A DNA stretch of 64,000 nucleotides from a virus (Duplodnaviria; Caudoviricetes), in the IMG/VR virus record IMGVR_UViG_3300017716_001697, positions 1-64,000 of that record. One strand, 5' to 3'. The position numbers and the translations under genes are program-made. The notes under the pieces are model-generated. The model saw nothing but the letters and a program-made list of their open reading frames with translations, was not told where the DNA came from and did not search any database. Shown piece by piece: positions 7,735 through 41,775 of the stretch; within the stretch, counting starts at the first letter, position 1; each line of letters starts with the position of its first letter.

Positions 7735-7809
7735 GGGTCCTTAATTTAATGGTAGAATGACTGCCCGATTAGCGGTTTGTGATGAGTTCGACTCTCTCAG
7801 GACCTACCA
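7735..7809 (+). tRNA. Degenerate tRNA-Ile(GAT)
   Basis: Cloverleaf and CCA, but loop CCGATTA lacks U33/R37. Confidence 0.55.
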
Positions 7810-10021: not shown

Positions 10022-10176
10022 CGCGAGATAAAGACCGTTTGGGACGGGGACCGGATTGTTGACCGGCGTCGGATAAAGCAACGAGCTGCGGTGACTTATA
10101 GAAGGGCCCTTTTATTTGTTGCTTAAAATTTCAGTACGCTCCGACTTCAGTGGTTCGATTCCACATCTTGCGGCCA
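10022..10176 (+). tRNA. Giant tRNA-Asn(GTT)-like with ~90-nt variable-arm insert
   Basis: Acceptor CGCGAGA/TCTTGCG plus GCCA; loop TTGTTGA; T arm; folded insert. Confidence 0.55.
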
Positions 10177-10180
10177 AATT

Positions 10181-10277
10181 TTGTTTAGTGTAATGGTAGC
10201 ACGGGGAAGTCCGAGACACGGAAGTGGAGTAGGCAATCAAATGCCCTGAGGTGGTTCGATCCCACCAGCAAATTCAA
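10181..10277 (+). pseudogene. tRNA-like element with replaced anticodon arm
   Basis: D arm AGTGTAATGGTAGCAC and T arm GGTGGTTCGATCCCACC; no CCA. Confidence 0.45.
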
Positions 10278-10278
10278 T

Positions 10279-10621
10279 TTCAACATTCGAGCTAACGCTG
10301 GCAACAGAGGAAGTTCGGGACAAGCGCCAAGGGCGTGTGGGAGAGTGGTTATTTGATGGGGCATAGTGTCGGCCGGCTCAAATCTAATACGGAGTTGTTA
10401 GAAGCCAAGCAGAGATTTATCATCAAGCTAGATCCGCAAGGATGACAAAAGGTTCCTGAGACGGGTTCAACTCCCGGATGCTCCACCAAATAACTACTTG
10501 TTACACCACCGTGATACAGCTTGCAACACAAACAGAACCTGGGAACTCTTGGCTTATAGGTTCGGGTTGTGGCAAAGATTAATGTTAGCATAGAACAGAA
10601 TCCCGGCTACGGAATGTTGAA
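10279..10621 (+). ncRNA. rnpB: RNase P RNA (type-A catalytic domain)
   Basis: P1, P2 (GCTAAC/GTTAGC), P3, CR-I GAGGAAGTTCGGG, P5 CAAGC/GCTTG, P6 GCCAAG/CTTGGC, P15-16 with GGT, CR-IV AGATTAAT, CR-V ACAGAATCCCGGCTA. Confidence 0.85.
10358..10488 (+). ncRNA. Ala-acceptor tRNA/tmRNA-like domain nested in the RNase P RNA
   Basis: GGGGCAT/ATGCTCC with G3-U70, ACCA, GAC-GGGTTCAACTCCC T arm. Confidence 0.7.
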
Positions 10622-12721: not shown

Positions 12722-12795
12722 GCGTGGTTAGTTAAATGGTAGAACCAGACGTTGCCAACGTTTAGACAGGAGTTCGATTCTCCTACTACGCTCCA
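12722..12795 (+). tRNA. tRNA-Gly(GCC)
   Basis: Loop TTGCCAA, U73. Confidence 0.9.
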
Positions 12796-12830
12796 TAAGA
12801 TAAATATTGAATACTACAGAGACTAACTAT

Positions 12831-13469
12831 ATGTTTTCATTATTTAAGAAATTTATTGCACCTGTTAAGCCACCGTTAGACGCTGGCCCTACCTATATAG
12901 ACCAGTCTAGAATGACGTTCGAAGAACGCAAGACATGGCGTCAGGGGATGATGCACAAGTCAATTAAAGAAGTATTTTCGGATTTAGAAATCATTAGTGG
13001 AATGTATCGATATCGTGCTTTGCCGATTGACGAACGTGGTCATTATTATGTTATAGTAATAGAAACAACACGGCATTTTGCCCTTAGCAAACATATATCT
13101 ACACAGAAATTATCGCAAATTGAGGTGACATTAAAGTCACAAACATTTGAAAATTATGGTCTTATAGTAGACGGCGTCTACTGGAAAGCTAACGAGACAA
13201 TTGATGTATTTGATAAGGCGCTTACACCTAAACAGTCAATTAGATCGCAAAAAACAATAGAAGATTTACATGCAAGTTTTTGTGATACTCAACCGATGAG
13301 TTATGACACATTACTGGAAACTGATCCAGAAACAGGTAAACGTGTGTTCGATCCGTTAACTGAAGATGAAGCTCGTGCATTTAAAGCTGCATTAGCTACA
13401 GGATTAGGTACATATAATTTGAAAGTTGGTGGCAAAGTGTATGACACAGATATTGCCCCGCTAAGTTAA
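12831..13469 (+). CDS. Hypothetical protein
   Basis: ~212-aa ORF after ATAAATA. Confidence 0.7.
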   Translation: MFSLFKKFIAPVKPPLDAGPTYIDQSRMTFEERKTWRQGMMHKSIKEVFSDLEIISGMYRYRALPIDERGHYYVIVIETTRHFALSKHISTQKLSQIEVTLKSQTFENYGLIVDGVYWKANETIDVFDKALTPKQSIRSQKTIEDLHASFCDTQPMSYDTLLETDPETGKRVFDPLTEDEARAFKAALATGLGTYNLKVGGKVYDTDIAPLS

Positions 13470-13472
13470 TTT

Positions 13473-13648
13473 GGGGTGTAATGGTGAGTATAGCGGGTTC
13501 GATTCCCGTGTGGTCCACCATAAATTGTGTTGTCCTAGCGGTAATAGCTAGTTAAATGATGAAAGTCGGAAGCAATGCAATTTATAATGGGCCAGGGTTG
13601 GACCGTTCCTAGGACGCTCGACGGGTTCGATTCCCGCCCACTCCACCA
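13473..13648 (+). ncRNA. Pair of cross-pairing Ala-acceptor half-tRNAs
   Basis: Two T arm plus ACCA units whose acceptor strands pair crosswise; hairpin spacer. Confidence 0.6.
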
Positions 13649-13762
13649 ATGCGTACTCTAAATCTTCTGTAATTTTACAGACGATCAGGGCTGGTACACC
13701 GTTGTATTAAATCTACATTTATTGTATAATACACAATAGACCATGGGTACTTTAGTTTCTAA

Positions 13763-13820
13763 AGACTACTTACAGCAAATTAAAATTTTAAATTGGTTTT
13801 AAAAAACAAAAAGTAGTCTG
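13763..13820 (+). ncRNA. CAGCA-motif RNA
   Basis: AGACTAC-T-TACAGCA...GTAGTCTG. Confidence 0.6.
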
Positions 13821-13950
13821 ATTTTTTTATATTGTTTCGGCAGGTTAGTCTGCGCCTCTTACGTGAGTAATGCAGGAAGGCACTGTCAGCATTATATACC
13901 TCATGGTTAGTATATAAAGTAGCTGCGATAACAAAGATGAAACAATTTTT

Positions 13951-14026
13951 CCTGCCGTGGCAGAGCGGCTAGAGCGCGATCCTCATAAGATTGAATAGGT
14001 TGGTTCGACTCCAACCGGCAGGACCA
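13951..14026 (+). tRNA. tRNA with CAT anticodon (Met or Ile2)
   Basis: Loop CTCATAA, CCA. Confidence 0.8.
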
Positions 14027-20108: not shown

Positions 20109-20801
20109 ATGAAAATAGGATTCTATGGGCATAGTATAGCTAGCTGGGCGAATAGTCCGAACAATGAAAGTTTTATCGACAAGATAAGATTGAAATATTC
20201 AGCTGACATTGTTAACCTTGGCGTACCACAGGGCAGTGAGGAACGAATTCTGTTTGACCTAAAGAAGACCAAAGAGATAGATGTGGCAATTATATTCCAC
20301 AGTCTAATAAGATATATTTTTATTCCCGGTGCAGACAGAGACCTAAGCATACGTACTGTTCCAGCCAAGAAGGCTGGCGTATTGTGGACAGAAAGTAATA
20401 TGCAGGTACCCACACAAGAGCAATTTGATAAAGAATTTTTTTCGTATTCAAATCTTAAAGATGTGTTTGGAACGCCAGAAGAATTTTGTAATGCAATGAT
20501 TACATATAAGGAATATTTTCATCACCCGGATCTTTTAACTAACAGATTTCATTCTGCTGTCTTGTTGATCGACAATTACCTGTTAAATAAGAATATAACA
20601 GTATTGCACGCTATAACACCAAATCCGGCAATATTCCCGGCGTGGCTAGAAATTAAATCAGGTACAGTAGATTCCGAATTATTACCGATGTCGGGTAAAA
20701 TGTCGATAGTGGGTGAGAAATTTCCTAATAATCTTGATGCTGCCGGCAATGATTTTGTGTTTGATAGAATAGACTCCTGGTTACAACGCAGTTCGTGGTA
20801 G
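20109..20801 (+). CDS. SGNH/GDSL-like hydrolase or acyltransferase
   Basis: IGFYGHS...NLGVPQGS... Confidence 0.5.
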   Translation: MKIGFYGHSIASWANSPNNESFIDKIRLKYSADIVNLGVPQGSEERILFDLKKTKEIDVAIIFHSLIRYIFIPGADRDLSIRTVPAKKAGVLWTESNMQVPTQEQFDKEFFSYSNLKDVFGTPEEFCNAMITYKEYFHHPDLLTNRFHSAVLLIDNYLLNKNITVLHAITPNPAIFPAWLEIKSGTVDSELLPMSGKMSIVGEKFPNNLDAAGNDFVFDRIDSWLQRSSW

Positions 20802-20861
20802 AGAGGTCATACGCCGGTGTGAAATCCCGGAGACGGAGGTTCGAATCCCCCGGCTGCTCCA
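20788..20861 (+). tRNA. tRNA, probably Phe(GAA), overlapping a CDS stop
   Basis: Anticodon arm like tRNA-Phe at 8451; T arm; CCA. Confidence 0.55.
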
Positions 20862-30526: not shown

Positions 30527-30554
30527 TTGACACCTTAACGCTAAGTAGTATAAT
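30527..30554 (+). promoter_or_regulatory. sigma70 promoter of tmRNA
   Basis: TTGACA-N16-TATAAT. Confidence 0.75.
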
Positions 30555-30560
30555 AAAGGT

Positions 30561-30848
30561 ACTGTTGTAATCCCTTCGAAGCGAAGGCAGGCAAGACGCG
30601 GGTTCGAATCCCGCCAGGTCCACCAAAATCATATTCGAAAAATAAAATCCATAACACGTTATGGTGTGAGTATGATTCTGATGGGCCTGCTCCGGAAATC
30701 GATTGCGTGAGATAGTAGAGACGGCAACACGAGAGGCGATGGACGTAATCCAAGCAAAACTAGTAAATGCAAACGCAGATACATTCGCTCTTGTAGCCTA
30801 AGAAACTCAAAGCTGAGGTAGGACTTACCTTATAACCAAAACAACCAA
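30561..30848 (+). ncRNA. ssrA: Circularly permuted two-piece tmRNA
   Basis: Acceptor piece ends GACGCGGGTTCGAATCCCGCCAGGTCCACCA (30625); hairpin spacer; coding piece starts GGGCCTG (30683); tag ANADTFALVA* at 30769-30801. Confidence 0.92.
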
Positions 30849-30849
30849 T

Positions 30850-30872
30850 GGGGGCTTCGGCCCCTATTTTTA
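30850..30872 (+). terminator. Terminator after tmRNA
   Basis: GGGGC-TTCG-GCCCC plus T-run. Confidence 0.85.
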
Positions 30873-30918
30873 TGAATATAATGGTGTTTATTATATTAAA
30901 AATATAGATAAATATAGG

Positions 30919-33704: not shown

Positions 33705-33780
33705 GCGCCTTTAGCTCAGTTGGTAGAGCAGCGGATTCTAAATCTGTAGGTCAGGGGTTCGAGTCCCCTATCGCGCACCA
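33705..33780 (+). tRNA. Amber-suppressor tRNA (CTA)
   Basis: GCGGA-TTCTAAA-TCTGT anticodon arm; canonical D and T arms; CCA; two acceptor mismatches. Confidence 0.8.

Positions 33781-41697: not shown

Positions 41698-41775
<78 letters not shown>

Follow-up and report, generated by a model that had tools for sequence, protein, structure and literature searches.

To our knowledge, the aminoacyl-acceptor RNAs that have been described, i.e. tRNA, tmRNA and viral tRNA-like structures, have one acceptor end per molecule. Work from the Schimmel laboratory reportedly established G3.U70 as an identity element and the acceptor/T-arm minihelix of tRNA-Ala as a substrate of AlaRS. Split and permuted tRNAs are processed by an archaeal or eukaryotic splicing endonuclease and a ligase, which yields a one-piece decoding tRNA. 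The split tRNAs of Nanoarchaeum equitans and the permuted tRNAs of Cyanidioschyzon merolae have been reviewed (PMC4090602). Permuted two-piece tmRNA genes (RF04321, RF01850) occur in alpha- and betaproteobacteria and in cyanobacteria, and base pairing is predicted to keep their pieces together (PMC11915505). TLD-only or CDS-less tmRNA-like genes were described from mycobacteriophage DS6A and from jakobid and oomycete mitochondria, the tmRNA database holds the classes 'Standard, no CDS' and 'Permuted, no CDS', and a molecule similar to that of DS6A reportedly inhibited tmRNA strongly, perhaps by SmpB titration (PMC4131195, PMC11915505). The literature gave CDS-less, TLD-only and permuted tmRNAs and no two-acceptor or cross-completing phage tRNA-like RNA. 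Here we explore a phage element that appears to be a variant of both the tmRNA-derived tRNA-like RNAs and the permuted two-piece genes, and of which the two-headed form is apparently undescribed.

The window, i.e. the whole stretch of 64,000 nucleotides that was analysed, covers the opening 64 kb of a virus record that is 364,576 bp long, has direct terminal repeats and is rated complete (GC content 41.6%). ARAGORN identifies 46 tRNA or tmRNA genes in the whole genome, 44 of which are inside the window. The two-unit element is located within the tRNA cluster, between tRNA-Gly (12722-12795) and tRNA-Met (13951-14026), starts 3 nt past the stop codon of an ORF of no known family (12807-13469) and is single-copy in the genome. 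The ORFs adjoining the element gave no informative Pfam or PHROG family, a single weak PHROG match being of unknown function, and a search for relatives via the neighbouring ORF found none. Neither ARAGORN nor Rfam at gathering score calls anything at 13473-13648. This jumbo phage also carries a permuted tmRNA gene that scores 145 bits with the Rfam model beta_tmRNA and 120 bits with tmRNA_permuted. The features of the element, with this tmRNA gene as context, are as follows.

13473-13520, + strand: unit 1 (U1), 48 nt; 88% mean identity over 12 loci
13473-13478, + strand: 5' strand of the head A acceptor, GGGGTG, partner of 13639-13644; six of six pairs in 12/12 loci
13480-13484, + strand: AATGG, D-loop analogue of head A; invariant, like the tmRNA TLD consensus aAaUGG
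13486-13488, + strand: GAG, 5' strand of a P2-like inter-unit helix, pairs with 13617-13619
13493-13509, + strand: T arm 1, 5 bp, loop TTCGATT; 59/60 cells paired
13510-13520, + strand: head B 3' strand GTGGTCC (13511-13516 paired), A73 and CCA; predicted internal 3' end
13521-13588, + strand: intervening segment, hairpin 13521-13533/13572-13584 plus TAAT leader; excision predicted
13589-13648, + strand: unit 2 (U2), 60 nt; 88% mean identity over 12 loci
13589-13594, + strand: 5' strand of the head B acceptor, GGGCCA, partner of 13511-13516; positions 5 and 6 show double changes
13597-13602, + strand: GTTGGA, second D-loop analogue; invariant
13604-13616, + strand: hairpin CGTT/CCTAG/GACG; stem covaries, CCUAG loop invariant
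13617-13619, + strand: CTC, 3' strand of the P2-like helix, pairs with 13486-13488
13621-13637, + strand: T arm 2, 4 bp, outermost pair mismatched (pair counts on parsed strands)
13638-13648, + strand: head A 3' strand CCACTCC (13639-13644 paired), A73 and CCA; 3' end
30533-30892, + strand: permuted (two-piece) tmRNA gene of the same phage (ARAGORN, Rfam); context, not part of the element

U1 is composed of GGGGTGT, a 13-nt linker with AATGG, the T arm GCGGG/TTCGATT/CCCGT, GTGGTCC and ACCA, in other words the head A 5' strand, a D-loop analogue, T arm 1, the head B 3' strand and ACCA. U2 is composed of GGGCCAG, a 25-nt linker, the T arm ACGGG/TTCGATT/CCCGC, CCACTCC and ACCA, corresponding to the head B 5' strand, the second D-loop analogue, a hairpin, T arm 2, the head A 3' strand and ACCA. 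When the units are combined crosswise both heads form six consecutive pairs, including G3.U70, followed by a mismatch at position 7. In cis, positions 4-6 read G.G, U.G and G.U in U1 and C.C, C.A and A.C in U2. An initial annotation had proposed crosswise stems of 6 bp with G3.U70 and mismatches or wobbles in cis, and reading of the strands confirms both. D stems are absent from both units, the element has no reading frame and ARAGORN finds no tag. The hairpin of U2 has a 4-bp stem, one pair of which is U.G, and a 5-nt loop; CCUAG(G) is palindromic. All helices are nested and therefore the precursor can fold as one chain.

The 68-nt spacer (13521-13588) has a 13-bp closing stem that starts directly after ACCA and stops 4 nt before G13589. 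The intervening segment of the tmRNA of the same phage folds alike, in agreement with the closed hairpin that had been likened to that of permuted tmRNA. At permissive threshold tmRNA models match weakly on T arm and acceptor parts; the Rfam scores of 17.2 and 18.3 bits, to be compared with thresholds of 47 (RF04321) and 84 (RF01850), cover T arm 2 and a downstream GGGCTGG only. This GGGCTGG is found at 13688, preceded by a small hairpin (13664-13685). The weak tmRNA-model matches pair it with the U2 3' strand. As a third partner it was rejected, with C.C at position 4, no T arm after it and no counterpart in homologues, and since it is missing from homologues it would be either chance or the relic of a further unit.

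Homologues were collected by pattern scans of IMG/VR and JGI metagenome contigs. This resulted in 11 further distinct two-unit loci (L008, L016, L024, L027, L028, L029, L030, L032, L033, L038 and L039; L034 is identical to L016 and L037 to L030); the divergent L090 and the one-headed relative L065 were also recovered. The window and the 11 loci form the 12 parsed loci on which covariation was counted, and L090 brings the number of two-unit loci to 13. The homologues are mostly found inside tRNA clusters of large phage contigs: the L008 record is 353 kb and rated 99% complete, and the remaining virus records are 9-13% fragments of similar-sized genomes. Near-complete genomes G000 and G001 both have the element as well as a full permuted tmRNA with the same spacer design. 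The tmRNA of G001 (353 kb; L040:1501-1881) scores 106.9 bits, has an intervening segment of about 165 nt and shares its acceptor, GGGCCUG/CAGGUCC, with the tmRNA of the window. In cultured-phage records the only matches were of approximately 27-33 nt, at the T arms, and a scan of bacterial and archaeal genomes with the U2 pattern gave a single match, on an archaeal MAG contig (L041).

Pair counts were scripted on parsed strands, MAFFT having misplaced a 5' gap in A1. Positions 1-6 of head A are paired in 12/12 loci and positions 4-6 pair crosswise in all 36 cells, with double changes from G4-C69 to U-A and from U5-A68 to C-G in L030 and from G6-C67 to A-U in L024. In head B, all 12 loci pair at positions 1-5 and 9/12 at position 6, positions 4-6 are paired crosswise in 33/36 cells, and double changes are seen from C5-G68 to U-A (L008) and from A6-U67 to G-C (L032). 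This amounts to five compensatory pair types (A4, A5, A6, B5 and B6), and whenever one strand carries a substitution, its partner in the other unit carries the compensating one. The cis combinations behave otherwise: U1 pairs at positions 4-6 in 24/36 cells, by wobbles only, at positions 5-6 in the window and most loci, U2 in 4/36, and position 4 is mismatched in 11/12 loci for U1 and in 12/12 for U2. When partner strands were shuffled among the sequences, the observed cross pairing was reached in 91 of 20,000 trials, a figure that ignores relatedness; by sequence the 12 loci make up about three groups, so there are few independent evolutionary events. Crosswise completion, for which covariation of positions 4-6 in homologues had been set as the test beforehand, is thus supported by the counts. 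Both heads have G3.U70 and A73 without exception (12/12 loci), which upholds the Ala-type assignment made earlier, and CCA is present at all ends but one, L027 having ATCA. Mean identity is 88% in the units, 36% in the spacers and 40-42% in the 60-nt flanks.

The P2-like helix occurs as GAG/CUC in three loci, AAG/CUU in one and GUU/AAC in seven, with L008 as an exception, and given these three types all three pairs covary. It is paired in 34/36 cells, which was matched by shuffles in 12 of 20,000 trials. The stem of the U2 hairpin has the variants GCCU/GGGC, UGCU/GGCA and CGUU/GACG around the invariant CCUAG loop. RNAalifold, applied to the MAFFT alignment, recovers head B, the spacer stem and the U2 hairpin, each with changes on both sides; head A escapes it, as the 5' end is displaced by one column in the alignment. 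At the level of sequence comparison these counts establish the nested secondary structure and its conservation. AAUGG in U1 and GUUGGA in U2 sit where in tRNA and tmRNA the GG of the D loop docks on the T loop, and may dock in the same way here. Three further pairings were discarded. The pairing of T arm 1 with T arm 2 proposed by MFE and RNAalifold is an energy artefact of near-identical arms; in L028 and L030 the cross-pairing of T1 with T2 is broken, and a double change from C-G to G-C keeps the local T2 hairpin. The RNAalifold pairing of UGGUG (13482-13486) with the 3' CACCA probably reflects the universal GG and CCA motifs and is uninformative because both sides are invariant. GGACCGT (13600-13606), considered as a partner for the U1 3' strand, is absent from most homologues.

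The term half-tRNAs used in the initial annotation is imprecise, as the units are tmRNA-type TLD modules and, in addition, share a covarying inter-unit helix and contain the CCUAG hairpin. Likewise, its statement that an anticodon is lacking holds in that no canonical anticodon arm exists, and needs amendment for the conserved 4-bp hairpin (13604-13616) with its invariant loop. That the CCUAG loop would be an amber-reading anticodon is unlikely, since the 4-bp stem includes a U.G and position 33 would be C. Signs of TAG recoding were not found: TAG read as sense opens frames no more than TGA or TAA does.

The relative L065 (286-333) is a 48-nt cis mini-domain in which U1, from its 5' part to the end of the T arm, runs on into the U2 3' strand. 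It comes from a close relative that shares 92% identity with the window at a different RNA locus. Such a form would be the product expected from recombination between the two T arms, and it independently shows the U1 5' strand and the U2 3' strand to be the predicted partners. That the units can only complete each other, as was claimed, is therefore true for the window and does not extend to L065, where the cis form is one-headed. Head B is absent from L065 and decayed in L027, with A.G at position 6, ATCA and T.T in the T stem, and head A of L090 has an indel, so that not every member needs two heads. L072, a 345-kb IMG/VR contig, has another cross-completing pair, unrelated in sequence, on the minus strand at locus positions 448-569 and directly 3' of a tRNA-Ala: a 41-nt unit (GGGCATC...AATCTCC-ACCA), 3 nt and a 78-nt unit (GGGGGTC...GATGTCC-ACCA), with 7 and 6 pairs crosswise and 3 and 3 in cis. 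Further matches to this pair were ordinary cis forms only. The L072 pair suggests that the cross-paired design arose more than once.

Various other RNAs were noticed in the window and in relatives. At 10358-10491 (+ strand) there is an unannotated 134-nt RNA, called neither by ARAGORN nor by Rfam, with a cis 7-bp Ala-type acceptor (GGGGCAT/ATGCTCC) including G3.U70, a T arm and ACCA. It is preceded by about 75 conserved nt, and the conserved region (10283-10491) shares 92% identity with L065:334-553, the T stem and a GCAA hairpin both showing compensatory changes; the one-headed form of L065 sits just upstream of this homologue. The RNA may be another tmRNA-like RNA. Downstream of the element, a promoter-like TTGTAT-17-TATAAT (13706-13734) precedes a long hairpin, rich in A/U and with a U run (13764-13828), which has a sub-threshold chance match to Dicty_Class_I_RNA; 13706-13828 may be a short sRNA unit or the terminator of the tRNA operon. 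A tRNA with anticodon CUA at 33705-33780, labelled tRNA-Pyl by ARAGORN, is in effect an amber suppressor. Rfam adds tRNAs at 7735-7806 (39.6 bits) and 41699-41771 (55.1 bits) that are missing from the ARAGORN list, and odd tRNA-like fragments (10130-10275) as well as a T arm with GCTGCTCCA (around 20760-20861) are unannotated. Mycobacterium phage Wildcat (L026) has, at 68040-68105 of its record, an unannotated cis mini-helix with GGGGTGAATGGTT..., a T arm, CACCCC-A and G3-C70, the 5' part of which resembles U1 and which is identical in Cosmo, Azrael100, EniyanLRS and MaryV. Cis acceptor/T-arm mini-domains of 40-48 nt with G3.U70 and encoded CCA are found in scattered phage contigs (L134, L143, L172, L193 and L103), and in L211-L214 tRNA-Tyr is immediately followed by a cis tRNA-like RNA of about 90 nt. 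Probably, DS6A-type or related mini RNAs have been missed by gene finders.

As regards processing, the internal ACCA is conserved in 11/12 parsed loci, or 12/13 with L090, and is ATCA in L027. Position -1 of both 5' ends is a pyrimidine, which is U in 12/13 loci, L027 having C before unit 2. Over the 12 parsed loci the spacers vary in length from 32 to 141 nt and are unconserved in sequence, and their closing stem covaries. Closure starts 0-2 nt after ACCA and leaves a leader of 4-6 nt that ends in U (C in L027). The spacer of L027 contains a tRNA-like gene (minus strand 140-210), for which ARAGORN gives an undetermined 2-nt anticodon, and that of L028 a degenerate copy of the U2 3' part; both look like a graveyard of tRNA-like units. 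The conserved ACCA, the pyrimidine at -1, the free spacer and the nested gene would fit processing into two pieces with two chargeable ends. Among five loci tested by unconstrained cofolding, the MFE heterodimer of four has both cross stems; heterodimers are predicted to be 7-12 kcal/mol below the summed monomers, and U2:U2 homodimers to be about as stable as the heterodimer.

Compared with permuted tmRNA, the element has the same order of T arm, 3' acceptor strand, ACCA, closed hairpin, leader and 5' acceptor strand (for head B, 13493-13520, 13521-13588 and 13589-13595). It also has G3.U70, A73, a D-loop analogue with GG and a P2-type helix, whose strands follow the D-loop analogue and precede the T arm, respectively. 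By eye, both the 5' part of head A, GGGGUGAAUGGU..., and the stretch leading up to T arm 2 look like the tmRNA_permuted consensus: head A reads GGGGUG(A/U)-AAUGGU, P2 stub, AAC/CUC-GGUC or GAC, T arm and CACUCC-ACCA, and the tmRNA consensus, as given by cmscan, GGGGgUGaAaUGGuUUCGAC...GGACgcGGGUUCGAUUCCCgcCAcCUCCACCA. The GGGCC/GGUCC stem of head B matches the one in the phage's own tmRNA and tRNA-Ala genes. Unlike permuted tmRNA, the element has no tag reading frame, its linkers are just 25 nt (U2) and 13 nt (U1), which leaves no room for pseudoknots, and P2 is cut to 3 bp. In the predicted fold the mRNA-like domain that in tmRNA lies between the P2 strands is replaced by a second, permuted tRNA-like module with its own T arm and acceptor, and both pieces end in CCA. 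The element is apparently derived from tmRNA.

The likeness to TLD-only RNAs consists in the phage origin, a tmRNA-type acceptor, D-loop analogue and T arm, and the missing mRNA-like domain. However, TLD-only RNAs have one acceptor stem, in cis or between two pieces, whereas the element has two that are domain-swapped, each needing both pieces. Each head can also be compared with the minihelix of tRNA-Ala, being an acceptor/T-arm stack with G1-C72, G2-C71, G3.U70 and A73-CCA, to which head A adds G4-C69 as in E. coli tRNA-Ala. Unlike that minihelix, the heads are bimolecular, have six paired positions and a mismatch, and are both in one particle. A canonical tRNA differs in having a cloverleaf, D stems and a 5-bp/7-nt anticodon arm, none of which is present here, and neither ARAGORN nor RF00005 calls a tRNA. 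Split and permuted tRNAs likewise fold from separate or reordered halves, and the 3' half of head B is encoded before its 5' half. Yet in place of bulge-helix-bulge junctions the element has a plain closed spacer stem with ACCA and a YAAU-type leader, it is found in the context of a bacterial virus, it lacks a canonical anticodon arm and its pieces are predicted to stay separate.

Taken as a whole, we consider it fairly probable that the element encodes a tmRNA-derived, tag-less RNA, of two predicted pieces, that forms a heterodimer with two Ala-type CCA ends and acts on the machinery that recognises the tmRNA TLD. In the fold we propose, the outer acceptor stem A, made by the U1 5' end and the U2 3' end, would stack on T arm 2, and the 3-bp P2-like helix would enclose T arm 1, stem B capped by the spacer hairpin, and the CCUAG hairpin. 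Host RNase P would cut before G13473 and G13589, and 3' trimming would stop at both encoded CCA ends, as in permuted tmRNA genes. Removal of the spacer would leave pieces of 48 and 60 nt held by about 15 intermolecular base pairs (two 6-bp stems and the 3-bp helix). Both heads have G3.U70 and A73 and are thus plausible AlaRS substrates, and host AlaRS may charge both. The phage genome was searched for SmpB, AlaRS and a CCA-adding enzyme and encodes none; therefore host factors would be used. The more specific proposal of a non-covalent heterodimer with two Ala-charged, domain-swapped heads, made by RNase P and 3' trimming, is tentative and falls somewhat short of an even chance. Host SmpB, and perhaps also AlaRS or EF-Tu, might be titrated or diverted by the RNA, so that trans-translation would be modulated during infection; alternatively the RNA might be a rescue factor without tag. 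Modulation of trans-translation or tag-less rescue is the most likely role in our analysis, favoured because of the precedent of the DS6A TLD-only RNA.

The same fold could also belong to an uncut single RNA. Its spacer hairpin would do no more than cap stem B, its internal ACCA would be left over from descent from a permuted tmRNA, and the end at 13648 would be the sole site of charging. The whole nested structure would indeed fold as a single chain, and head B is decayed in L027 and lost in L065. However, the internal A73-CCA, the -1 pyrimidine and the short leader are kept beside a spacer that drifts freely between 32 and 141 nt, and the G3.U70 of head B is invariant. One spacer holds a tRNA-like gene and the L072 spacer is 3 nt, as in tandem tRNA genes, and the phage tmRNA with the same layout belongs to a gene class whose products are known to be cleaved into two (PMC11915505); a one-piece RNA is judged unlikely. 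Folding of the two units as separate cis mini-helices, or decay of functionless tandem tRNA-Ala or tmRNA fragments, would find parallels in the one-piece cis mini tRNA-like domains found in phages (L065, L134, L143, Wildcat) and in the G.U wobbles that U1 can form at positions 5-6. It is nevertheless hardly credible: cis folding of each unit was rejected on the near-universal mismatch at position 4 and on compensation that takes place across the units only, conservation is 88% in the units and about 40% in the flanks, and the cis form L065 joins exactly the cross partners, the U1 5' and U2 3' strands.

The main functional rival accepts the two heads and sees in them a bivalent sponge or decoy, drawing off proteins which bind acceptor ends or damage them, rather than a ligand of SmpB in trans-translation. 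Speculative candidates would be defence toxins directed at the CCA end or at aminoacyl-tRNA, AlaRS, EF-Tu and Ala-tRNA-dependent transferases. Phage tRNAs are thought to compensate for attack on host tRNA, and the element is located in a large phage tRNA cluster and would expose two Ala-type acceptor/T minihelices with the decoding arm absent. Moreover, the phage already has a full tmRNA, with which an SmpB decoy would compete and which it would thereby hinder. Against this, family searches of the neighbouring ORFs found no linked defence or counter-defence gene, and the tmRNA-like features of head A, AAUGG and the P2 stub, are unneeded for a generic CCA decoy. We regard a general acceptor-end decoy as rather improbable and keep to the tag-less RNA that acts on the tmRNA machinery.

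How much interest the element deserves depends on proof of processing and of double charging. If the favoured reading is true, two Ala-type ends that exist only on pairing would be a new architecture in tRNA mimicry, and, were both ends charged, one particle with two Ala-CCA ends could engage two AlaRS, EF-Tu, SmpB or ribosomal sites, with the invariant CCUAG loop as a further recognition site. As neither ARAGORN nor Rfam sees this class, phage tRNA clusters probably contain similar modules that annotation overlooks. Whether phages tune or block trans-translation of the host, or buffer attack on tRNA ends, would become directly testable with a 48-nt and a 60-nt RNA. If doubly charged, the element would define a new class of phage RNAs with ribosome rescue or tRNA surveillance as target, and the borrowing and remodelling of tmRNA/SmpB rescue by phages would extend past full tmRNAs and the one-headed DS6A-type domain.
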